Positions 5,948 to 13,133 of a stretch of 13,133 nucleotides of DNA are shown one piece after another. The stretch lies in IMG/VR virus record IMGVR_UViG_3300045988_162215. One strand, 5' to 3'. The stretch is from a virus. The notes under the pieces are model-generated. The model saw only the letters and a list, made by a program, of their open reading frames with translations, ran no database searches and was not told the origin of the DNA. Numbering within the stretch: position 1 is the stretch's first letter; each line of letters opens with the position of its first letter. A program made the translations under genes and the position numbers.

Positions 5948-5976
5948 TTGACAAACAAAAATAAGTTTGTTATAAT
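5948..5976 (+). promoter_or_regulatory. rightward consensus promoter TTGACA-17-TATAAT for plus-strand cluster
   Basis: TTGACA 5948-5953, spacer aacaaaaataagtttgt, TATAAT 5971-5976. About 95-nt leader to ATG 6076 with RBS GGAGGGAG. Confidence 0.7.
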
Positions 5977-6075
5977 ATTATTAGAAAATAAATAAAAATA
6001 AAACAAAAGCAGTTAACAAAAGGTTTGAATAAAGACATGACGGATCGAATCTTTTCGGATTGCGGAGGGAGATAA

Positions 6076-6360
6076 ATGGATTATTTTAATAGAAATAATG
6101 ATGAAGAGATGGGTGGGATCAGCTATTGTAGCTGTGATTTGAACCCAACTGGTATTACTGCTAATCGAATTAAGTTTGGCGATGTGACAATGGATATAGG
6201 TGATTTAAGAGTAGATAAATATGATAAAATAATAAAAGAACTGTCTGATAAAGTTGAAGTAATTATGAAACATTGTTCTTTTAAACAAGAGAAGAAAATA
6301 AGTGAGTGGCGGGAGTTTGACTTAGAGGCTGCTACAGGGAGAGAGTTTGAGACACGATGA
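6076..6360 (+). CDS. hypothetical protein (94 aa)
   Basis: RBS GGAGGGAG 5 nt before ATG. Stop overlaps the next start (ATGA). Confidence 0.65.
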   Translation: MDYFNRNNDEEMGGISYCSCDLNPTGITANRIKFGDVTMDIGDLRVDKYDKIIKELSDKVEVIMKHCSFKQEKKISEWREFDLEAATGREFETR

Positions 6361-6560
6361 GTTGGGTTATTATTTTGATTTATATAGCGATAGCTATTGT
6401 TAGTTTATATTTTGGATTTCGCGCGGGAGTTGAATTGATTGTTGCGGCGATCCGCAAGAATCCAAATAAAATGTTGGCGGCAATGGGAATAAGAGTAGTA
6501 AGGAGAGTTGAACATGAGGATACCACAAAGCGTGGCTCGCGCGATAGTAAGAATACATGA
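6357..6560 (+). CDS. small protein with N-terminal TM helix and basic C-terminus (67 aa)
   Basis: ATGA overlap with the upstream gene. Weak RBS (GGGAGAGAG about 11 nt upstream). Confidence 0.5.
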   Translation: MSWVIILIYIAIAIVSLYFGFRAGVELIVAAIRKNPNKMLAAMGIRVVRRVEHEDTTKRGSRDSKNT

Positions 6561-6602
6561 TTTCATTGTTTATAGAATTTGGACAAAATTCTAAACTATG
6601 TG

Positions 6603-6617
6603 TTGGGCAAAAGCCAA
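6603..6617 (+). terminator. weak hairpin TTGGGC-aaaa-GCCAA followed by TAATTTGTTTG
   Basis: Short imperfect stem after the stop of 6357..6560. May attenuate before the internal promoter-like TTTGTA-17-TATAAT at 6625-6653. Confidence 0.25.
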
Positions 6618-6669
6618 TAATTTGTTTGTAATTGTTTACAAATATAGTATAATGAGAGAAAGGAGGATT

Positions 6670-6840
6670 ATGGAATTGAATCTTCAAGAAACATGTCAGC
6701 GATTGAGGCTGAGTGAGTCGACTCTACGAGAGGCGTTTCCGCGCACTGTTAGAACTTTAGAAAAACAAGGTATTAAATTAACTAAAGTTGGCAGAGGGCA
6801 GAATGCAGATTATACTATTGAATATGTAAACAAGGAGTGA
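6670..6840 (+). CDS. putative helix-turn-helix DNA-binding protein (56 aa; MELNLQETCQRLRLSESTLREAF...)
   Basis: RBS GAAAGGAGGA just upstream of ATG 6670 (short spacing). The track ORF started further upstream without an RBS. HTH-like segment QRLRLSESTLRE. Confidence 0.5.
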   Translation: MELNLQETCQRLRLSESTLREAFPRTVRTLEKQGIKLTKVGRGQNADYTIEYVNKE

Positions 6841-6845
6841 TTTAA

Positions 6846-7028
6846 GTGCCAATAAGAACCAAATATAAAACCATTTATTCTTTAAGAGTAAGGATGCTTT
6901 TAAGGGATATGGGTTTTGAGCCTCTATTAGAAAAAGATAATATATATAGATCTGGATTGAAGTGCTGGATATATGAAGTTACAGATAATTTTAATAAAGC
7001 TCTTGATAAAATATTAGGGGGTAATTAA
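6846..7028 (+). CDS. hypothetical protein (60 aa), GTG start
   Basis: RBS AAGGAG 8 nt before GTG 6846. Stop 1 nt before the next RBS/ATG. Confidence 0.5.
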   Translation: MPIRTKYKTIYSLRVRMLLRDMGFEPLLEKDNIYRSGLKCWIYEVTDNFNKALDKILGGN

Positions 7029-7029
7029 A

Positions 7030-7317
7030 ATGAAAGCTGTAACCACAGATAGACCAGTTAAGTATGAGCCGGGAGAATTTTTTCAAATTTCAAATAAAGG
7101 TTTGAAGGCAGCAGCTAGTCTTAATAATAATGGATTATTATTGTGGTTATATTTGTGTAAATTTAAGAGTGGTACTAAGTGGAAGATAAGCCCGCAGGCT
7201 ATCAGTAATGAACTGGGGATAACTTTAGATAAAGCTAAGAAGGTTTCAACTATTGGATACCAAGAATTAGTTGCAGCAAATTTTATTAGAGATGATGTGT
7301 TCTACGCGGACGGTTAA
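7030..7317 (+). CDS. winged-helix DNA-binding protein resembling RepA_N / phage replisome-organizer N-terminal domain (95 aa)
   Basis: Motif GLLLWLYLCKF...WKISPQAISNELGITLDKAKKVSTIGYQELVAANFI resembles the initiator winged helix of Firmicute plasmids and phages. RBS GGGGGT. Lies directly upstream of the iteron array. Confidence 0.6.
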   Translation: MKAVTTDRPVKYEPGEFFQISNKGLKAAASLNNNGLLLWLYLCKFKSGTKWKISPQAISNELGITLDKAKKVSTIGYQELVAANFIRDDVFYADG

Positions 7318-7320
7318 ATA

Positions 7321-7480
7321 AAAGTGCTAAAATGGCACTTTTTAGATACAAGGAGTCTATTAAAAAGTGCTTAATCGGCACTTTTATATACAAGGAAAAG
7401 TGCTTAATAAGCACTTTTTAATGAGCAGAAAGTGCTTAATTGGCACTTTTTTCTAAGGAAAAGTGCTTAATCGGCACTCT
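7321..7480. repeat. array of five 21-bp palindromic iterons AAAGTGCTTAAT(N)GGCACTTT at 7321, 7364, 7397, 7429, 7460 (spacing 43, 33, 32, 31 bp)
   Basis: Seen directly. Copy 3 (7397-7417) is a perfect palindrome AAAGTGCTTA-A-TAAGCACTTT; the others differ at 1-3 positions. Spacing is about three helical turns. Confidence 0.85.
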
Positions 7481-7520
7481 AATATATAAATAGAGAATAA
7501 ATACTAAATAAATAAATAGA
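7481..7520. other. 40-bp AT tract (4 G/C in 40) immediately after iterons; candidate DNA-unwinding element
   Basis: aatatataaatagagaataaatactaaataaataaataga. Confidence 0.5.
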
Positions 7521-7521
7521 C

Positions 7522-7578
7522 GGTATAAATAATCTTTACGTAGTTCGCTTCGCTCACTACTCCAAGATTATTTATACC
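7522..7578 (+). repeat. hairpin A: 15-bp stem GGTATAAATAATCTT/AAGATTATTTATACC, internal loop, 4-bp inner stem GTAG/CTAC, 13-nt loop TTCGCTTCGCTCA
   Basis: Perfect inverted repeat seen directly. Confidence 0.8.
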
Positions 7579-7625
7579 TTTAGGCGCGGCGTAGTGATGT
7601 AATGTTACAAAGGGGCCGGCGTAAA

Positions 7626-7680
7626 GAGATTAAAACCTTGGAATAATGAGCGAAGCGAATTATGGAATGGTTTTAATCTC
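7626..7680 (-). repeat. hairpin B: 12-bp stem GAGATTAAAACC/GGTTTTAATCTC, internal loop, 4-bp inner stem ATAA/TTAT, 13-nt loop TGAGCGAAGCGAA (exact reverse complement of loop A)
   Basis: Same architecture as hairpin A with a different stem sequence. The loop is identical when read on the opposite strand. Confidence 0.8.
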
Positions 7681-8045
7681 GTCCCTATATTTAATAGTGT
7701 ACTACTTTTTTAACATTTTTCTTAGAGTTGATTGCTCAATTGAGTTGGAGCAAAGGAGAAAAAGGATGGATATAAATATATTGAAGAGGGGTATGATAAT
7801 ATGGATTTTATAAATACTTGTGTAAGACCTAAGTCATATAATATTTATATATTAGATATTGATGATGTGGCGGATAGTATTATGAATCCGCGGCGGTTTT
7901 AAGGGCTAGGTTAAAAGGGGTGCAGGGCAATGCCGCGCATACAGACATTAGTTTTAAAAAATGATCTGAATTTGGGTTAGAAGCCCAAGCCTCCCTTTTA
8001 TCTTACGTTACTTTGCTATTGTTATTAAAGAGAGGAGAAATAGTT

Positions 8046-8294
8046 ATGTTTAATACGGAGATTGTTGCTAAGGATATTGATGGTATAAAGACGCAGTTGA
8101 GGAAGGCATATGATGGCGATGTGCCGGCGGGTTTAGCTGTTTTTTATTGGTTAAAGAATAATGGTATAGGGATTAGAGATAGGAATGGTGAGGTTGTTAG
8201 GGATGAAGATTTGTATAGTTTTTGTATAAATTATGGCGCGAGTGTTGATAGGGCTATTGTTGCGGCGAAGGGTGAAGGCGCATATGGCGTTTAG
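8046..8294 (+). CDS. hypothetical protein (82 aa)
   Basis: RBS AGAGAGGAGAAA 6 nt before ATG 8046. The track ORF began at an upstream in-frame TTG. Confidence 0.6.
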   Translation: MFNTEIVAKDIDGIKTQLRKAYDGDVPAGLAVFYWLKNNGIGIRDRNGEVVRDEDLYSFCINYGASVDRAIVAAKGEGAYGV

Positions 8295-8335
8295 AAAGAT
8301 GGGAGTAAGTATACCGAGTATGGTAACAGCTAAGA

Positions 8336-8501
8336 CAGGACATTTTGTCTTTATAATAGTGTTTTGTTTTTAGATAGCACTTTATGTTGAATAGTGTTTT
8401 TGTCGCTGGATAGTATTTTGTCTTTGATAATGTGTTAGATAGCATTTTTGTCTTTAGATAGTGTTAGATAGTACTGTATAGTGTCAGATAGTGTTTTTAT
8501 C
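8336..8501. repeat. degenerate direct-repeat array, units TAGATAGTGT / TTTTGTCTTT alternating with about 10-bp periodicity (at least 10 units)
   Basis: e.g. tagatagcat|ttttgtcttt|agatagtgt|tagatagtac|tgtatagtgt|cagatagtgt|ttttatctgg. Lies between convergent genes 8046..8294 and 8640..9008. Confidence 0.7.
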
Positions 8502-8599
8502 TGGCCGCGCATACCCTGGACCATGTTACCGTCACCGTTATCGTTTTAGTCTCTCTTTTCTTTATTAAGAGATCCCTAGACGAGAACCCGCGCAAAAAA

Positions 8600-8626
8600 T
8601 CCCTGTACACATTACATGTACAGGGA
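8600..8626 (-). terminator. intrinsic terminator TCCCTGTACA/TGTACAGGGA, then UUUUUU on minus strand
   Basis: 10-bp perfect stem downstream of the stop of 8640..9008. AAAAAA at 8594-8599 on the plus strand gives the U-run on the minus strand. Confidence 0.65.
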
Positions 8627-8639
8627 CTAACTACTTAGA

Positions 8640-9008
8640 CTAAAAGAACTTGAAAAGATTGAACAACTCCGCCATAGGATCTGACTCTGACTTCTTCTTT
8701 ACCTTAGGCTTAGGCTTACTCTCCGCTGTATCCATTGCCTGAATAAAAAGCTCGATAAACTTCAACTTATCAGTCATGTCCTTTGTAATCTCATTTGCGT
8801 CTTTCTCTGAAATTTCAGCTCCAGTAATAGCTTCCACATAATCCAACAAATCAGCAATCAGATATTTTCTTGCATCTTCTACCTCTGTAGGATCAATCTT
8901 TCTCTTATCCTTGGCTGCGGCAACCGCATCGGCTTCCGCCTGCGCCATCTTGCTAATCTCTTCAACTGACTTTCCTTCTGCAATAAGTTCTGCTATTGTT
9001 TTACTCAT
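8640..9008 (-). CDS. acidic protein with basic/hydrophobic C-terminal tail (122 aa)
   Basis: RBS AGAAGAGG upstream of ATG 9008. Its own promoter is at 9048-9076. Confidence 0.7.
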   Translation of the reverse strand: MSKTIAELIAEGKSVEEISKMAQAEADAVAAAKDKRKIDPTEVEDARKYLIADLLDYVEAITGAEISEKDANEITKDMTDKLKFIELFIQAMDTAESKPKPKVKKKSESDPMAELFNLFKFF

Positions 9009-9047: not shown

Positions 9048-9076
9048 ATTATATAATAATTTTTCAGAAGTGTCAA
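9048..9076 (-). promoter_or_regulatory. consensus promoter TTGACA-17-TATAAT (minus strand)
   Basis: Reverse complement of tgtcaa 9071-9076 and attata 9048-9053, spacer 17. Confidence 0.65.
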
Positions 9077-9205
9077 AGGCACGAAAGCATATACCAGTAG
9101 TAAAATTGTAATTAGCTGTAACTATATCTTTTCTATTGTTGCGGGTATTTGTTCGTTTTTATATGAGAATAAGAAAAAACGAAGCTAATTTACCTCCCCT
9201 ATATA

Positions 9206-9234
9206 ATTATATCAAAAATACGAAAAAATGTCAA
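9206..9234 (-). promoter_or_regulatory. orphan promoter TTGACA-17-TATAAT followed by SD GGGGAGGT with no start codon or ORF downstream
   Basis: Minus strand reads TTGACAttttttcgtatttttgaTATAATtatataGGGGAGGTaaattagcttcg. The nearest in-frame start is a non-canonical ATT giving an 18-aa ORF. Confidence 0.5.
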
Positions 9235-9369
9235 GAAAGATGCGCTGAGGCATTTATCAATAGAATCACTGTAATTCGATACAGTAAGCCATTTTTTATT
9301 CTGACGGATATTTTTACGTTTCAGATAGAAAACGAGCAAATTTACAACAAAAGTAAGTCAAACATCTAA

Positions 9370-9469
9370 TTTCGGGATCCGTATGGCGGTTTTCAGATTT
9401 CAAACAACCAGGAAAAAAAGCCATATAGGGTCTGGTCGTGGGAACTCGGCGTTGCCCGGTGGTCAACGC
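9370..9469 (-). ncRNA. candidate small RNA transcribed leftward from promoter 9476-9504; begins with GC hairpin GGCGTTG/CAACGCC
   Basis: Consensus promoter with no ORF of at least 40 aa and an RBS downstream over 460 nt. The transcript 5' end folds into the 9448-9470 hairpin. The 3' end is undefined. Confidence 0.25.
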
Positions 9470-9475
9470 CGCGAC

Positions 9476-9504
9476 ATTATACCACATTTTATGTGCTTTG
9501 TCAA
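9476..9504 (-). promoter_or_regulatory. consensus promoter TTGACA-17-TATAAT (minus strand) driving an ORF-less transcript
   Basis: tgtcaa 9499-9504 and attata 9476-9481 on the plus strand. Confidence 0.6.
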
Positions 9505-9547
9505 GTAAAAAAATAAAAAAATAGAGGAAAATTCCTCATTTTTTAAG
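9505..9547 (-). terminator. intrinsic terminator: 10-11-bp stem GGAAAATTCCT/AGGAATTTTCC, then UAUUUUUUUAUUUUUUU
   Basis: Inverted repeat 9516-9526 / 9537-9547 downstream of the stop of 9568..9960. Long T-run on the minus strand. Confidence 0.6.
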
Positions 9548-9567
9548 GAATTTTCCCCTAAAAACCT

Positions 9568-9960
9568 TTATTTCTTAGGTTTTCTCTGTTCAATTAAATC
9601 GATTTTGAACTTGCGACCATTGATTTCTAAAGAAATCAGCTTATTTTCCTTAATAATCTCAACCTTTTCGCCATAAATACTTTGCAAATTAGTTAAAATA
9701 TTATGGAAAACTTCTTTTTTTTCATCAGAAATCTTAACTGTCCTAGGCTTTGAATCCTTGCGTTTTTCCTGGGTAATACCATGATCAACTCTCTGTCCTT
9801 TGGTTTTCTCTTCCAACTCGACAACCTCTTCCATTGTAAACCCTTCGGGACACTCTTCCAACTCTTCACAGGGTTTATCCCACATTTCATGGCAAAGCAT
9901 TTTACCATTCTTACAAATAAGATTTCCGCAATCTTCACACAACTTGATATTCATATTCAC
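9568..9960 (-). CDS. protein with N-terminal Cys-rich zinc-ribbon (CEDCGNLICKNGKMLCHEMWDKPC) and charged C-terminal region (130 aa)
   Basis: RBS GAAAGGGG upstream of ATG 9960. Promoter at 9986-10014. Confidence 0.7.
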   Translation of the reverse strand: MNMNIKLCEDCGNLICKNGKMLCHEMWDKPCEELEECPEGFTMEEVVELEEKTKGQRVDHGITQEKRKDSKPRTVKISDEKKEVFHNILTNLQSIYGEKVEIIKENKLISLEINGRKFKIDLIEQRKPKK

Positions 9961-9985
9961 AACCCCTTTCTTTTACTGTACCTAT

Positions 9986-10014
9986 ATTATAACACAAGAG
10001 GTTGAGAATGTCAA
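9986..10014 (-). promoter_or_regulatory. consensus promoter TTGACA-17-TATAAT (minus strand)
   Basis: tgtcaa 10009-10014 and attata 9986-9991, spacer 17. Confidence 0.65.
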
Positions 10015-10024
10015 CCTTTAATTT

Positions 10025-10056
10025 GCGGTTTTCGGTGGGAGAATCCCACCGACCGC
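10025..10056. other. GC-rich hairpin GCGG-tttt-TCGGTGGGA-gaa-TCCCACCGA-CCGC between two minus-strand genes
   Basis: 9-bp perfect stem plus outer GCGG/CCGC. A T-run follows only on the plus strand (CACATTGTTTTT). It carries the 3' flank motif CGC-CACATT shared with the other GC hairpins. Confidence 0.4.
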
Positions 10057-10068
10057 ACATTGTTTTTA

Positions 10069-10467
10069 CTAGCCCGCGATATCCTCAGTATTAAGGGCGA
10101 AGGTCATCTTCTTACCATCTGGAATACGGCGAACCTTGTAAACCATAGATGGAAGTCTGTTTTCTTCCTTTGCTGGACCGGCAAGCTGTGTCATAAGTGC
10201 GACAATCTTGTTAAGCGAATACTCGCCATTAAAGGCATTCATAATCTCTGTACAAGTCATAGGCTTTGAATCCTCGAGCAAGTCAAGAATCATATTCTTG
10301 ATTTCTGCGTTCTCGGTCTGATTCTTAGACGGCTTACGGTTTGCATTCTTCTTGTTAAGAATAGCAATCTCCTTACGGCAAAAGTCCTTGATATCCTCGG
10401 ATACGCCATCAATAGCCATAATCATCTCAAAATACTGCTTCTTTGTTGTCTTGTTTGTTGTTGTCAT
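10069..10467 (-). CDS. Lys/Thr-rich N-term plus C-terminal winged-helix-like domain (132 aa); fed by four tandem promoters
   Basis: RBS AAAAGGGGT upstream of ATG 10467. Segment CTEIMNAF...KIVALMTQL...VYKVRR resembles wHTH. Product unknown. Confidence 0.7.
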   Translation of the reverse strand: MTTTNKTTKKQYFEMIMAIDGVSEDIKDFCRKEIAILNKKNANRKPSKNQTENAEIKNMILDLLEDSKPMTCTEIMNAFNGEYSLNKIVALMTQLAGPAKEENRLPSMVYKVRRIPDGKKMTFALNTEDIAG

Positions 10468-10516
10468 AAAACATACCCCTTTTCTTAATAAATTCTTAAC
10501 TCTTTGTTACATATAC

Positions 10517-10545
10517 ATTATAACATATTTTGTAAGGTTTGTCAA
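10517..10545 (-). promoter_or_regulatory. promoter Pm1 TTGACA-17-TATAAT immediately upstream of gene 10069..10467
   Basis: tgtcaa 10540-10545, attata 10517-10522. Confidence 0.65.
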
Positions 10546-10608
10546 GCATTTTTTTTATTATTTTCTTTTCGGTTTAGAACCTTTAATCTTCCTTGACCTT
10601 ACATACTT

Positions 10609-10637
10609 ATTATAACATATTTTTTAATGTTTGTCAA
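10609..10637 (-). promoter_or_regulatory. promoter Pm2 TTGACA-17-TATAAT (part of 175-bp tandem duplication)
   Basis: tgtcaa 10632-10637, attata 10609-10614. About 50 bp identical to the Pm3 copy. Confidence 0.6.
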
Positions 10638-10783
10638 TAGGTTTTTTAAGATTTTTAAGAAATAACAATGATTTTAGGCGGATATGGAATAAGGCTCAAC
10701 CAAAATTGCCAACTCATTATCCCTTTTATTATTGGTTTTTTATTTCCTTTATCATTGTTTTCTTAACTTTATCTTACATACTT

Positions 10784-10812
10784 ATTATAACATATTTTTT
10801 AATGTTTGTCAA
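10784..10812 (-). promoter_or_regulatory. promoter Pm3, exact duplicate of Pm2
   Basis: cttacatacttattataacatattttttaatgtttgtcaataggttttt occurs at 10598-10646 and again at 10773-10821. Confidence 0.6.
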
Positions 10813-10893
10813 TAGGTTTTTGAAAGTTTCTAAAATTTGTTTTCCTCACGACCGAGGTTGCTATTTTGTTTTCTTTCCTTACCTTGTAAATAC

Positions 10894-10922
10894 ATTATAA
10901 CAAAATATTTATAGAAAATCAA
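10894..10922 (-). promoter_or_regulatory. weaker promoter Pm4 (TTGATT-17-TATAAT)
   Basis: attata 10894-10899. The -35 is rc of aatcaa at 10917-10922. Confidence 0.35.
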
Positions 10923-10927
10923 TATCG

Positions 10928-10980
10928 GAAAATTGCACAAAATTCGGGATGTACAAGGTTAAAAAATTTGTGCAATTTTC
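10928..10980. repeat. inverted repeat GAAAATTGCACAAA ...25 nt... TTTGTGCAATTTTC
   Basis: 14-bp perfect arms at 10928-10941 and 10967-10980. Abuts the -35 of the plus-strand promoter at 10984. Confidence 0.7.
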
Positions 10981-10983
10981 CTA

Positions 10984-11013
10984 TTGACAAATGCCAGAGC
11001 TATGTGGTATAAT
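10984..11013 (+). promoter_or_regulatory. plus-strand promoter TTGACA-18-TATAAT firing rightward into GC hairpin 11019-11041
   Basis: TTGACA 10984-10989, TATAAT 11008-11013. Confidence 0.55.
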
Positions 11014-11046
11014 AGTTCGGCGTGCAAGGGGCGTGCACGCCGCGCC

Positions 11047-11075
11047 ATTATAACACATAATGAATTATTTGTCAA
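11047..11075 (-). promoter_or_regulatory. minus-strand promoter TTGACA-17-TATAAT; its transcript begins with hairpin 11019-11041 and runs through IR 10928-10980
   Basis: tgtcaa 11070-11075, attata 11047-11052. Confidence 0.55.
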
Positions 11076-11092
11076 CCCCTAAATTAAAAAAA

Positions 11093-11119
11093 TGTGGGCG
11101 AGTTTAGGCTCGCCGCACA
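11093..11119. terminator. bidirectional intrinsic terminator (TGTGGGCGAG/CTCGCCGCACA) flanked by AAAAAAA upstream and TTTTCGATTTCC downstream
   Basis: A-run 11085-11092 gives a U-run for the minus-strand gene 11133..11360. The T-rich 11120-11131 serves the plus-strand sRNA candidate. Confidence 0.65.
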
Positions 11120-11132
11120 TTTTCGATTTCCA

Positions 11133-11360
11133 CTAATCTTCAATGATTAACTTCGCTTTAAGTTTACGAATAGGTCTTTCTGAAAAATCACAAATAACTC
11201 CTTCTATAGCTCCGCTGTCAAGGTCAACAATATATGTATCATAATTATCAGCACATAACATACAAGGTTTATTATCATCTAAAAATGTAAAAACTTCACC
11301 ATTATCTAAATCTTCGCAACTTAAATATCCCTTAACTTCAATCTTTCCAATAATTTCCAT
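11133..11360 (-). CDS. hypothetical acidic Cys-containing protein (75 aa)
   Basis: RBS AAAGGTGA 5 nt before ATG 11360..11358 (the track start was an upstream GTG). Promoter at 11404-11432. Confidence 0.6.
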   Translation of the reverse strand: MEIIGKIEVKGYLSCEDLDNGEVFTFLDDNKPCMLCADNYDTYIVDLDSGAIEGVICDFSERPIRKLKAKLIIED

Positions 11361-11403
11361 TTTAATCACCTTTTTAACCTTTCTTTCTCTTGTTTATATA
11401 CTT

Positions 11404-11432
11404 ATTATACTATATTTATTATTATTTGTCAA
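11404..11432 (-). promoter_or_regulatory. consensus promoter TTGACA-17-TATAAT
   Basis: tgtcaa 11427-11432, attata 11404-11409. Confidence 0.65.
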
Positions 11433-11446
11433 GTATTTTTAGAAAA

Positions 11447-11466
11447 ATAGGCATTTCTGCCTATTC
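11447..11466 (-). terminator. terminator hairpin AATAGGCA-tttc-TGCCTATT, then UUUUCU on minus strand
   Basis: Overlaps the stop of 11461..11751. Directly upstream of the next promoter. Confidence 0.5.
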
Positions 11467-11751
11467 TTCAGAGATATTTGCGAAGGGCATCTTCGGACAA
11501 GGATAATCGTCAACCACTGATGAGCCACCATAAGTGGTTCGTACCATTGACACTCTCCACGCCACATCCGCAAGTCTATCAATACAACTTGGATAACTAC
11601 TCGTACACCAAATTTCTCCATTCTTACGAAAAATATCCTGATATGTGCCTTTAATTGTAGTTAAAAGACTAATCACATCTTCGATTTTCTGTTCCTCTTC
11701 TGGTGTCAAAGTAATTGTTTCAATACGTTTCTCGCCTGTAATAATTTCCAT
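11461..11751 (-). CDS. hypothetical protein (96 aa)
   Basis: RBS AGAGAGGT 7 nt before ATG 11751. Promoter at 11783-11811. Confidence 0.65.
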   Translation of the reverse strand: MEIITGEKRIETITLTPEEEQKIEDVISLLTTIKGTYQDIFRKNGEIWCTSSYPSCIDRLADVAWRVSMVRTTYGGSSVVDDYPCPKMPFANISEE

Positions 11752-11782
11752 ATAATTTACCTCTCTTTCACTTTCTATAATT

Positions 11783-11811
11783 ATTATATCATTATTATTT
11801 TAATTTGTCAA
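11783..11811 (-). promoter_or_regulatory. consensus promoter TTGACA-17-TATAAT (lies inside the 3' end of gene 11795..11998)
   Basis: tgtcaa 11806-11811, attata 11783-11788. Confidence 0.6.
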
Positions 11812-11998
11812 CATTTAATTCATAAATATTGTAATAAATTTTTGTTATCCAAGTATTTCTTATTATTCGCCAACATTTCCAAATAGGTCTTTGCCAACTT
11901 TTAAGATTAAAGCCTAAAATAAACAATGCCTTAAAATTTTTCCATGATTTTTCTTTAAGCCAATTATCTATTACTAAATACTGTGTTTTTGTTATCAT
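11795..11998 (-). CDS. Trp-rich basic small protein (67 aa)
   Basis: RBS AGAGAGGT 7 nt before ATG 11998. Promoter at 12024-12052. The 3' end overlaps the downstream promoter. Confidence 0.5.
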   Translation of the reverse strand: MITKTQYLVIDNWLKEKSWKNFKALFILGFNLKSWQRPIWKCWRIIRNTWITKIYYNIYELNVDKLK

Positions 11999-12023
11999 TC
12001 TTATTACCTCTCTTTCTACAATT

Positions 12024-12052
12024 ATTATATCACAGCTGGCTTACTTTGTCAA
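12024..12052 (-). promoter_or_regulatory. consensus promoter TTGACA-17-TATAAT
   Basis: tgtcaa 12047-12052, attata 12024-12029. Confidence 0.6.
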
Positions 12053-12205
12053 GCACTTTTTTATTGCGTATTCAACTGGCGAAACTGGATAAACACAAAC
12101 AACTAATTCTTGAAGCAATTGTGACGCTTGTTTTTTATTTCTAATAGCCTTTTTACTTTTTATATATTGAAAACCATTAGCAGTTTTTATTTTATAATAT
12201 TTCAT
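12041..12205 (-). CDS. small basic protein (54 aa, MKYYKIKTANGFQYIKSKKAIRNKKQ...), not in ORF track
   Basis: RBS AGTGAGGT 9 nt before ATG 12205..12203. Its own TTGACA-17-TATAAT promoter is at 12233-12261. The stop overlaps the downstream -35. Confidence 0.45.
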   Translation of the reverse strand: MKYYKIKTANGFQYIKSKKAIRNKKQASQLLQELVVCVYPVSPVEYAIKKCLTK

Positions 12206-12232
12206 TTCTTATCAACCTCACTTTCTATACCT

Positions 12233-12261
12233 ATTATACCACCGCTGACCTACTCTGTCAA
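12233..12261 (-). promoter_or_regulatory. consensus promoter TTGACA-17-TATAAT
   Basis: tgtcaa 12256-12261, attata 12233-12238. Confidence 0.6.
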
Positions 12262-12708
12262 AAGTAAATCAGCTAAAAAATCAATAATATTTTCTGCGGT
12301 CGGATCGACTGTTTCTCCCAAACTCCAACCCTTGCGAACCTTTGCGTTATCATCAAAAAGAATCTGATTTCCGCCATGCTTGCGTGTGCAGTTTGCTTTT
12401 GTTGTGCCATACTTCACAAGATGGATTTCATCAAAAGGGAAATCATATCGAGCAAGCCAATCTCTTTTTGCAGTTCTCACAACCTCGTCGAAGTCTTTTG
12501 TGGAATCTTTAGACAACCAAGATGTGACAACGATTCTATAACCGACACTCTTCAAACAACAGAGAAGAGAACCAAGCAAAGCCATATCCCAAAGTGGCTC
12601 AGCCATAATGTAAGGGCGCGGGTTCTCGTTGTGTAAATCCTCAAGCCAGCCCTCTACTCCATAGAAATTTGCGATTGTTCCATCCATGTCAAATACTAAT
12701 GTTTTCAT
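12250..12708 (-). CDS. HAD-superfamily 5'(3')-deoxyribonucleotidase (NT5C-like), 152 aa
   Basis: N-terminal motif I FDMDGT (DxDGT), motif II VVTSW, motif IV ILFDDN. Size and layout typical of phage NT5C-type nucleotidases. RBS AAGAGGT 7 nt before ATG 12708. Confidence 0.8.
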   Translation of the reverse strand: MKTLVFDMDGTIANFYGVEGWLEDLHNENPRPYIMAEPLWDMALLGSLLCCLKSVGYRIVVTSWLSKDSTKDFDEVVRTAKRDWLARYDFPFDEIHLVKYGTTKANCTRKHGGNQILFDDNAKVRKGWSLGETVDPTAENIIDFLADLLLTE

Positions 12709-12738
12709 ATTTTTTACCTCTTTCCTTATCTTTTCTTT

Positions 12739-12767
12739 ATTATAGCATGTTATTTGTTATTTGTCAA
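12739..12767 (-). promoter_or_regulatory. consensus promoter TTGACA-17-TATAAT
   Basis: tgtcaa 12762-12767, attata 12739-12744. Confidence 0.6.
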
Positions 12768-12774
12768 CTACTTT

Positions 12775-12909
12775 TTACCAGATAGTAATAGATTGTTTAG
12801 AATCATCATACTCCACAGCAGGCTCGCAAAAGTTGCCTTCGCTTTCTATATAGACTTCTGTATCTGATGGATATTCTTGTAATATTTCAATTAAATCTTC
12901 AACTGTCAT
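12775..12909 (-). CDS. small acidic protein (44 aa, MTVEDLIEILQEYPSDTEVYIESEGNFCEPAVEYDDSKQSITIW), not in ORF track
   Basis: RBS AGAGAGGT 7 nt before ATG 12909..12907. Promoter at 12945-12973. Confidence 0.45.
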   Translation of the reverse strand: MTVEDLIEILQEYPSDTEVYIESEGNFCEPAVEYDDSKQSITIW

Positions 12910-12944
12910 ATTTTTTACCTCTCTTTCCTTTACCTTATATACAC

Positions 12945-12973
12945 ATTATACATGATAGATTTTAATTTGTCAA
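12945..12973 (-). promoter_or_regulatory. consensus promoter TTGACA-17-TATAAT
   Basis: tgtcaa 12968-12973, attata 12945-12950. Confidence 0.6.
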
Positions 12974-13017
12974 GCATTTTGGGATAAAAAAATAAAAAAA
13001 TTTTTTCAAAAAAACTC

Positions 13018-13046
13018 TTGACAAAAAGCCGGGACTATGATATACT
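13018..13046 (+). promoter_or_regulatory. plus-strand promoter TTGACA-17-TATACT firing into GC hairpin 13054-13080
   Basis: Homologous in position and sequence to the 10984-11013 promoter (shared ...TATAmTrGAAGTTCGGCG). Confidence 0.5.
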
Positions 13047-13053
13047 GGAAGTT

Positions 13054-13080
13054 CGGCGCGCTGCGATCCATGGCGCGCCG
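13054..13080. repeat. GC hairpin CGGCGCGC-tgcgatccatg-GCGCGCCG (homolog of hairpin 11019-11041 with a different stem sequence)
   Basis: 8-bp perfect stem. Flanked by TTCGGCG on the 5' side and CGCCAATTATAACAC on the 3' side, as at 11019-11041. Confidence 0.75.
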
Positions 13081-13083
13081 CCA

Positions 13084-13112
13084 ATTATAACACAAAAATC
13101 AATTTTTGTCAA
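13084..13112 (-). promoter_or_regulatory. minus-strand promoter TTGACA-17-TATAAT convergent with 13018-13046
   Basis: tgtcaa 13107-13112, attata 13084-13089. Its transcript starts in the GC hairpin. Confidence 0.55.
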
Positions 13113-13133
13113 GCACTTTTTTCAAAAAAAAAT

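Follow-up and report, generated by a model that had tools for sequence, protein, structure and literature searches.

A conserved two-motif repeat array closing an early-gene block of an uncultured gut phage, tentatively read as a terminal-repeat boundary

Positions 8336-8501 of the virus record IMGVR_UViG_3300045988_162215 (IMG/VR), a stretch of 13,133 nucleotides referred to as a whole as the window, hold a dense cluster of two interleaved short motif types, A and B, on one strand. The array ends in a dyad followed by a GC-rich box, and array, terminal dyad and box form one cis-acting DNA element, which closes an early, host-takeover-like block of ~13.4 kb in a virulent gut phage of ~143 kb. 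The window was identical to the end of a 143,383-bp gut scaffold from ENA and ran on into the start of the same scaffold; because it joins the two scaffold ends, the genome assembles as a circle of ~143.4 kb, a form compatible both with and without a long terminal repeat (LTR). Eleven distinct versions of the locus, taken from IMG/VR, ENA and Logan contigs of human and pig gut, were compared. The features of the locus, in window coordinates, were as follows.

5948..8045, plus strand: small opposing operon of ~2.2 kb with a variable cassette and a perfect promoter at 5948-5976; its last member is the 82-aa gene, and it runs convergently towards the array.
8046..8294, plus strand: gene for a protein of 82 amino acids (aa), directly upstream of the array; its product is a candidate array-binding protein.
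8343..8445, plus strand: distal array, made of fast-evolving composite units of ~19 bp (TTTTGTCTTT followed by (A/G)ATAGTG).
8446..8502, plus strand: proximal module, a B unit and then four A units exactly 10 bp apart (8456, 8466, 8476, 8486), with the perfect dyad last.
ATAG at 8356, 8374, 8391, 8410, 8427, 8439, 8458, 8468, 8478 and 8488, plus strand: ten A units with the core (A/G/T)ATAG(T/C)(G/A), best form AGATAGTG, also written (A/G)ATAGTG; the copy at 8427 is an ATAAT variant.
8343, 8362, 8398, 8416, 8446 and 8494, same strand: six B units of the type TTTTGTCT or TTTT(G/A)TCT.
8503..8553, plus strand: GC-rich box, GGCCGCGCATACCCTGGACCATGTTACCGTCACCGTTATCGTTTTAGTCT, the best-conserved part of the locus.
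8554..8593, plus strand: conserved spacer between box and terminator, with a small imperfect hairpin TCTCTT...AAGAGA (inverted repeat I1).
8594..8626, minus strand: intrinsic terminator of the 122-aa gene, stem TCCCTGTACA/TGTACAGGGA, a perfect 10-bp inverted repeat (I3) with a T6 tail.
8640..9008, minus strand: 122-aa gene, with which the ~13.4-kb early block ends.
9048..13133, minus strand: part of the early block within the window, small genes each behind a perfect TTGACA-17-TGnTATAAT promoter.
9076, 9234, 9504, 10014, 10545, 10637, 10812 and 11075, minus strand: example promoters of this block.

Strict A cores on the plus strand numbered nine in 170 bp, against a mean of 2.3 and a maximum of 5 in 1000 first-order Markov simulations of the window, and the six B units exceeded a simulated maximum of five. 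A preliminary description of this DNA had reported at least ten degenerate units repeating at about 10 bp, one helical turn, over 165 bp. The ten A units and six B units are real, but they do not make up one uniform 10-bp unit, and the period does not hold over the whole stretch: lag-10 identity across 8336-8501 was 0.34, and the expectation from composition was also 0.34. Positions 8336-8445 instead follow a period of 17-19 bp (lag identity 0.39-0.44), which is that of the composite B+A unit, with successive A-unit spacings of 18, 17, 19, 17 and 12 bp in the distal array; a genuine 10-bp period was found only in 8446-8501 (identity 0.50 at lags 10 and 20). The B unit holds TRTCT, the reverse complement of the AGAYA that begins the A unit, so that each A-B pair is an imperfect 17-bp dyad around a T-tract. 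Several units had been credited with an AGATA...TATCT dyad; the perfect form, AGATA-GTGTTTT-TATCT, occurs in one unit only (8486-8502), the remaining units reading AGATA...TGTCT. This terminal dyad directly abuts the box, whose GGCCGC starts at 8503.

The same description was right in placing the array at a convergent junction, where the plus-strand gene at 8046-8294 and the minus-strand gene at 8640-9008 face each other and the minus-strand terminator runs from 8626 to 8594. The GC-rich patch it gave as 8503-8530 is present and longer, extending over 8503-8553, with a GC content that reaches 0.5-0.63 against ~0.32 for the window. Towards the 122-aa gene the spacer was 91-95% conserved among relatives, and the terminator, which was present in the minimum free energy fold, was invariant apart from a loop flipped in one lineage.

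Both motifs were kept, on one and the same strand, in all 11 versions, so the repeat unit is conserved in relatives, a point the preliminary description had proposed to check, while the distal units are turned over. The distal half was reshuffled, with pairwise identities of 30-55% and units gained and lost, and in one pig-gut lineage (contigs L022, L023, L024) a segment of ~135 bp, equivalent to ~8280-8420 and comprising the distal half of the array as well as the 3' part of the 82-aa gene, was inverted, so that the protein has 92 aa and a new C-terminus and the two halves of the array are opposed. The proximal B-A-A-A-B module with its 19/10/10-bp spacing was retained among relatives: the A-unit spacings ended in 19, 10, 10 in six of the seven full variants tabulated (10, 10, 19 in L004/L005/L007), and the last A unit stood 16-17 bp from GGCCGC in all seven. 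From box to terminator (8487-8634) pairwise identity was 91-96%, against 83-89% for the body of the 122-aa gene and, where the box was set beside this neighbour, 85-88%; by part it was 95-96% for 8487-8545 and 91% for 8546-8574, and most columns were invariant in 10 variants. Retention of motif identity despite turnover of the units suggests the behaviour of a protein-binding array. The box, being invariant without compensatory base-pair changes in the 10 variants, likewise suggests a DNA recognition sequence and not an RNA structure.

The block that the element closes was characterised on contig L029. On the strand of the 122-aa gene, 34 perfect TTGACA-N16-18-TATAAT promoters lay within 868-13633 (~12.8 kb), 27 of them with an extended TGn -10, a density of about one per small gene for about 45 tiny open reading frames (ORFs); beyond the array, L029 had no perfect promoter on the same strand. 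A Thg1-like gene bounds the block upstream. At the array edge the order is terminator (8626-8594), box (8553-8503) and array (8502-8343). Homologues of the 122-aa protein numbered 206, with 81-95% identity among the 120 listed. The protein was considered as a small terminase subunit and rejected, since it is acidic and matched only a PHROG labelled 'terminase large', weakly (E=0.0025). Two tandem perfect DnaA boxes (TTGTGGATAACT x2) were noted inside the block, at L029:5241-5264.

The strict pattern AGATA-N5-15-TATCT occurred only twice in 20.5 kb of L029, against 0.57 expected, at L029:697 and 14207, and these are the two edges of the block. The second copy of the dyad lies ~13.5 kb beyond the array along the minus strand, outside the window:

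L029:697-719, in the non-coding gap that immediately precedes the first early promoter: upstream dyad, around the GC-rich CACCCGCCC.

Its arms were conserved in L031, where the spacer differed. Just outside this edge stands a unit of ~34 bp (CCGTCTTTTGAAATCAAAATAACTTTTGGAGA), single in L029 and duplicated in tandem in L031. A pig-gut contig of 12,970 bp (L030) covered exactly the block, starting 7 nucleotides (nt) into the upstream dyad and ending 7 nt into the array dyad (window 8496). When contig ends were piled up as a proxy for genome termini, the short contigs ended at scattered positions, and L030 alone was suggestive.

Boundaries of known terminal repeats were compared using the LTR positions annotated in the sequence records of phages K, Twort, SPO1, A511 and T5. 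At the boundary of phage K (KF766114, position 8486) a terminator (8370-8387) stands after the final LTR gene; then come a GC-rich patch of ~70 bp ending in ...CCCAGGTACTTA at the boundary itself, four AGTCAACA direct repeats at +46 to +134 and 20-42 bp apart, and finally convergent genes. Twort (MT151386, 9201) has the motif and layout of K, with AGTCAAC four times and a convergent junction, and A511 has a single AGTCAACA at +46. Both LTR edges of K bear inverted 12-mers (TAAGTACCTGGG/CCCAGGTACTTA), and outside its outer edge lie 35-bp tandem repeats of variable copy number and an inverted AGTCAACA; the LTR boundaries and outside tandem repeats of K are described in PMC6445280. SPO1 (FJ230960, 13185) has a host-takeover block of 13.2 kb, a GC-rich patch spanning the boundary, five TTCAAAACTA at +54 to +169 and tandem repeats of ~66 bp before the right copy, and the early block described here is of similar size; SPO1 differs from the present locus in motif, in a spacing of 22-33 bp and in gene orientation at the junction. 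In T5 (AY587007, 9194-10409, 'repeat region 3'/injection stop signal) the LTR ends within a non-coding region filled with direct and inverted repeats, which comes after the pre-early genes with their strong promoters, straddles the boundary and is conserved above the neighbouring ORFs (bioRxiv 10.1101/866236). That region measures 1.2-1.6 kb and has paired DnaA boxes and long palindromes, whereas the present one measures ~260 bp and has no DnaA boxes. The locus shares with K and Twort a set of small early genes under consensus host promoters, followed by terminator, GC patch, same-strand repeat array and convergent genes; it further shares with K a short motif common to both block edges (here the AGATA...TATCT dyad) and a unit (here ~34 bp) that varies in copy number outside the outer edge.

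From the anatomy, conservation and block structure observed here, and from the parallel with known phages, we infer protein binding, a terminal repeat and cleavage, in the following tentative form. By analogy, the element may mark the inner edge of a long direct terminal repeat like those of SPO1, K, Twort and T5, or a site at which termini are generated; we favour this reading among those considered and find it plausible without calling it probable. The phased (A/G)ATAGTG units would be bound cooperatively by a sequence-specific protein, for which the small terminase, an accessory factor and, possibly, the neighbouring 82-aa protein are candidates. Once loaded, this protein would position a cut or a replication stop at the junction of dyad and GC box (about 8496-8503) and so define one genome terminus, the partner dyad at the far edge of the block defining the second boundary. 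The general idea of a nucleoprotein assembly site, possibly one for packaging, put forward in the preliminary description, is supported in part by the motifs kept under turnover and by the K/Twort/SPO1 layout; in its particulars it is not, as the array is not phased throughout and no terminase gene lies nearby. The element may still serve as a packaging initiation site, again by analogy. It does not look like an obvious cos end, because the complete-genome contigs (L018, L029) read straight through it.

Several points weigh against a terminal-repeat boundary. The LTRs of K and Twort are experimentally supported, whereas here the proposed repeat and its termini are deduced from assembled contigs. 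No terminase gene was found within ~10 kb on either side in precomputed Pfam calls. The ends of L030 are also explicable by assembly breaks induced by strain variation or by repeats: a polymorphic CA/TG dinucleotide precedes its upstream end, and a further contig, L046, is broken off within the array. In sequence the motifs have nothing in common with their counterparts in K, Twort and SPO1, no homology was detectable between the element and those of K and Twort, and the present array (~10+6 units) is denser and begins at the box, whereas that of K and Twort starts ~45 bp outside the boundary. In the literature we found no description of the K/Twort AGTCAACA arrays, nor of a function for the arrays of K and SPO1. 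Lastly, in the nearest deposited relative, the siphophage phAss-1, the PhageTerm-based cut is not at a comparable element.

On balance, and by the analogies drawn above, the element is best filed as a further case of the little-studied repeat arrays that large virulent phages have at the boundaries of their terminal repeats. If so, sequence alone would suffice to predict the genome ends and the terminal repeat in a common uncultured gut phage lineage of ~143 kb, present in human and pig. The comparison hints at a common, unstudied boundary grammar in phages of the SPO1, K, Twort and T5 types, consisting of terminator, GC box and short-repeat array, which may be a signal for terminal-repeat formation or packaging, and it offers a practical marker by which metagenomic assemblies of such phages can be oriented. 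Should the reading prove wrong, there would still be a well-defined, conserved, putative protein-binding array with a candidate binder. A bolder version would make the two dyads cleavage or arrest sites that turn the 13.5-kb early block of a widespread uncultured gut Firmicutes phage into a physically discrete unit, with the 82-aa protein as a boundary-binding factor of a new kind. Such a unit could be a first-step-transfer segment pausing at the array, as in T5, or a segment that is cut out or replicated separately. To our knowledge two-step injection is known for T5 and BF23 only. The ends of L030, with the same 7-nt offset in both dyads, are compatible with a discrete unit and do not establish one, and we regard this version as speculative and very improbable.

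The candidate binder is encoded by the gene that ends 49 bp ahead of the first array unit and was called in all contigs. A 77-residue core of the 82-aa protein was 87-97% identical in all but one of 22 homologues, the outlier having 68%; the C-termini differ, with lengths of 82 to 137 aa, since the reading frame continues into the array. Searches of Pfam and PHROG gave no match, leaving close homologues only, and an AlphaFold2 model (predicted local distance difference test, pLDDT, 69) had no meaningful Foldseek match (best E about 1) and no recognisable DNA-binding fold. The gene is the sole constant member of the operon among lineages. The window cassette comprises genes of 56, 60 and 95 aa, of which the 56- and 95-aa products are HTH-like (helix-turn-helix) with weak support; elsewhere a 204-aa double winged-helix protein and a protein of 231-237 aa are encoded, with the array motifs unchanged. 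This alternative cassette (L018:12027-12641, minus strand; also in L045 and L047) replaces window 6598-7317. The 204-aa protein matched phrog_3396 (ScpB) at 9e-14 and PHROGs labelled 'replication initiation O-like' or DnaD-like at 1e-6 to 1e-3; because it is swapped between lineages without change in the array motifs, it is not the specific binder.

Exchange of the cassette bears directly on an iteron-type replication origin, in which the ~19-bp units (AGATA-GTGTTTT-TGTCT) would bind an initiator leading to DNA opening or recruitment of a helicase loader. The origin of phage λ, oriλ, contains four iterons, each a 19-bp dyad around a central A-tract, to which the O protein binds. The present locus resembles it in unit length, with about five composite 19-bp units besides lone 10-bp units, in imperfect dyad arms around a T-tract, and in the O-like/DnaD-like 204-aa protein encoded in the same operon of some lineages (L018/L045/L047), to which the weakly HTH-like 56- and 95-aa products of the window may be added. 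It is unlike oriλ in that the array lies outside any gene and the putative initiator is not conserved with the repeats, the winged-helix gene being swapped for unrelated genes (BLASTP E=42). Nor was there an AT-rich unwinding element: GC content in 30-bp windows never fell below 0.20 in 8250-8650, the flanks are GC-rich, and the GC content of the array (0.23-0.33) equals the genome average. No DnaA box (TTATCCACA-like) occurred in or adjoining the array, and an origin would leave the dyad at the far block edge and the match to LTR boundaries unexplained. We therefore regard an origin as possible but doubtful. Boxes for DnaA, Spo0A and other host factors were rejected for the array, whose units, judged by eye, agree with TTATCCACA in at most 6 of the 9 positions. 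Rather unlikely, in our view, is an operator array or insulator, in which a phage protein such as the 82-aa protein would coat the array for autoregulation or as a roadblock between the two convergent, strongly transcribed early units. In its favour, no intrinsic terminator separates the plus-strand operon from the array, the 82-aa gene is the neighbour in every case and is strongly conserved, and the direct-plus-inverted half-sites resemble operator clusters; against this, the sites lie downstream of both genes instead of at a promoter, the model of the protein described above shows no DNA-binding fold that could be recognised, and the invariant 50-bp GC box and far-edge dyad would be unexplained.

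The remaining alternatives were judged to be less probable still. A headful pac site on a circularly permuted genome, where oligomers of the small terminase would form on the repeats and the first cut be made nearby, is improbable. With two kinds of interleaved box and a phased run the array does resemble the pac architecture of SPP1 (pacL/pacR) and P1, and the genome assembles circular; however, such pac sites normally lie in or beside terS, and the only hint of a terminase gene within ~10 kb on either side was the PHROG match of the 122-aa protein (E=0.0025), the precomputed Pfam calls giving none. The symmetry of the dyads at the block edges also better suits fixed boundaries. More generally, the R sites of λ cosB, the pacL/pacR boxes of SPP1 and the hexamers of P1 pac are terminase recognition sites that adjoin terminase genes. 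The array is like them in placing short repeats beside a conserved core of cleavage type, with a phased spacing that suggests DNA wrapping; it is unlike them in having no terminase gene near and in contigs that read through without a sign of cos ends. Functionless expansion, with the repeats as slippage or duplication debris in a non-coding gap, would account for a distal half that is poorly conserved and rearranges freely, up to the ~135-bp inversion. Every lineage has nevertheless kept the motifs themselves, their strand, the proximal spacing and the distance from the box, and the box is conserved above coding DNA, so that we hold debris to be more improbable than a pac site. Least probable of all, even taken jointly, are an RNA-level element (a small RNA, a 3' untranslated region structure or a protein sponge), a coding reading and a phage attachment site (attP). 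The plus-strand transcript should traverse the array, and the single-sequence fold had a z-score of about -2; yet RNAalifold on 10 variants found no compensatory change in any of 35 pairs and gave a covariation term of 0.04, and the locus had no Rfam match and no tRNA (ARAGORN). A GC-rich core beside arm-like repeats resembles attP superficially, but two box patterns of 21-24 nt had no match in 185,579 bacterial species genomes, and no integrase was encoded in ~34 kb of context. Coding readings, including code 15 (TAG=Gln, used by phAss-1), were rejected: they gave low-complexity read-through ORFs, broken by 10- and 19-bp indels between strains.

The locus had no match among 50,697 phage records (megablast, blastn). 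A 21-mer of the GC box was absent from JGI metagenomes, and searches of IMG/VR with box patterns returned two true relatives and nine other loci that were chance matches. Among neighbouring genes, a 642-aa protein had a weak tblastn match to Enterococcus phages of ~140 kb (25-29% identity). A 202-aa protein matched over its full length only Bacillus phages SP-10 (30%) and SBSphiC, and in part unrelated phages; SP-10 is classified in Herelleviridae, and its record is not arranged by termini. The HAD-like protein was 54% identical to a protein of phAss-1 (OQ749652), a gut phage using code 15 (PMC10607447). As a guide to termini phAss-1 was dropped, being too diverged and having a 10-bp A-tract array of its own in a different context. 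That array (L043:11896-12002) consists of about ten 10-bp-phased A-tracts (AAAAATGGCT/AAAATCGTCA) in a 1.4-kb non-coding gap with GC-rich patches, before a consensus promoter.

Some smaller observations concern the box, spacer and terminator. In L004/L005, at the equivalent of 8610-8616, the terminator loop reads TGTAATG and not CATTACA, which is a signature of template switching within a palindrome. In L045/L047, at the equivalent of 8530-8590, five base changes from the window sequence give box and spacer a 9-bp inverted repeat that is perfect (GGCTCTTGT...ACAAGAGCC), which could come from selection for pairing or from quasi-palindrome correction. Spacer positions 8580-8593 have a 14-nt exact inverted match (ACGAGAACCCGCGC/GCGCGGGTTCTCGT) 4 kb off, at ~12616-12629 (L029:10080-10093) in the HAD-like gene; ~0.05 inverted matches of this length are expected by chance, and this one is probably due to chance. 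An 11-mer, GCCGCGCATAC, is common to the box (8504-8514) and to 7932-7942. The latter belongs to a long non-coding stretch (7540-8000), GC-rich in patches and closed by a terminator-like hairpin (7971-7989 and a T run); this stretch possibly encodes a small RNA and had no Rfam match. Further upstream, after the 95-aa gene, a 32-bp tandem repeat of 3.6 copies (7363-7478), in which each unit is a hairpin (AAAAGTGC-loop-GCACTTTT), forms a string of terminator-like stem-loops that is conserved in L029.

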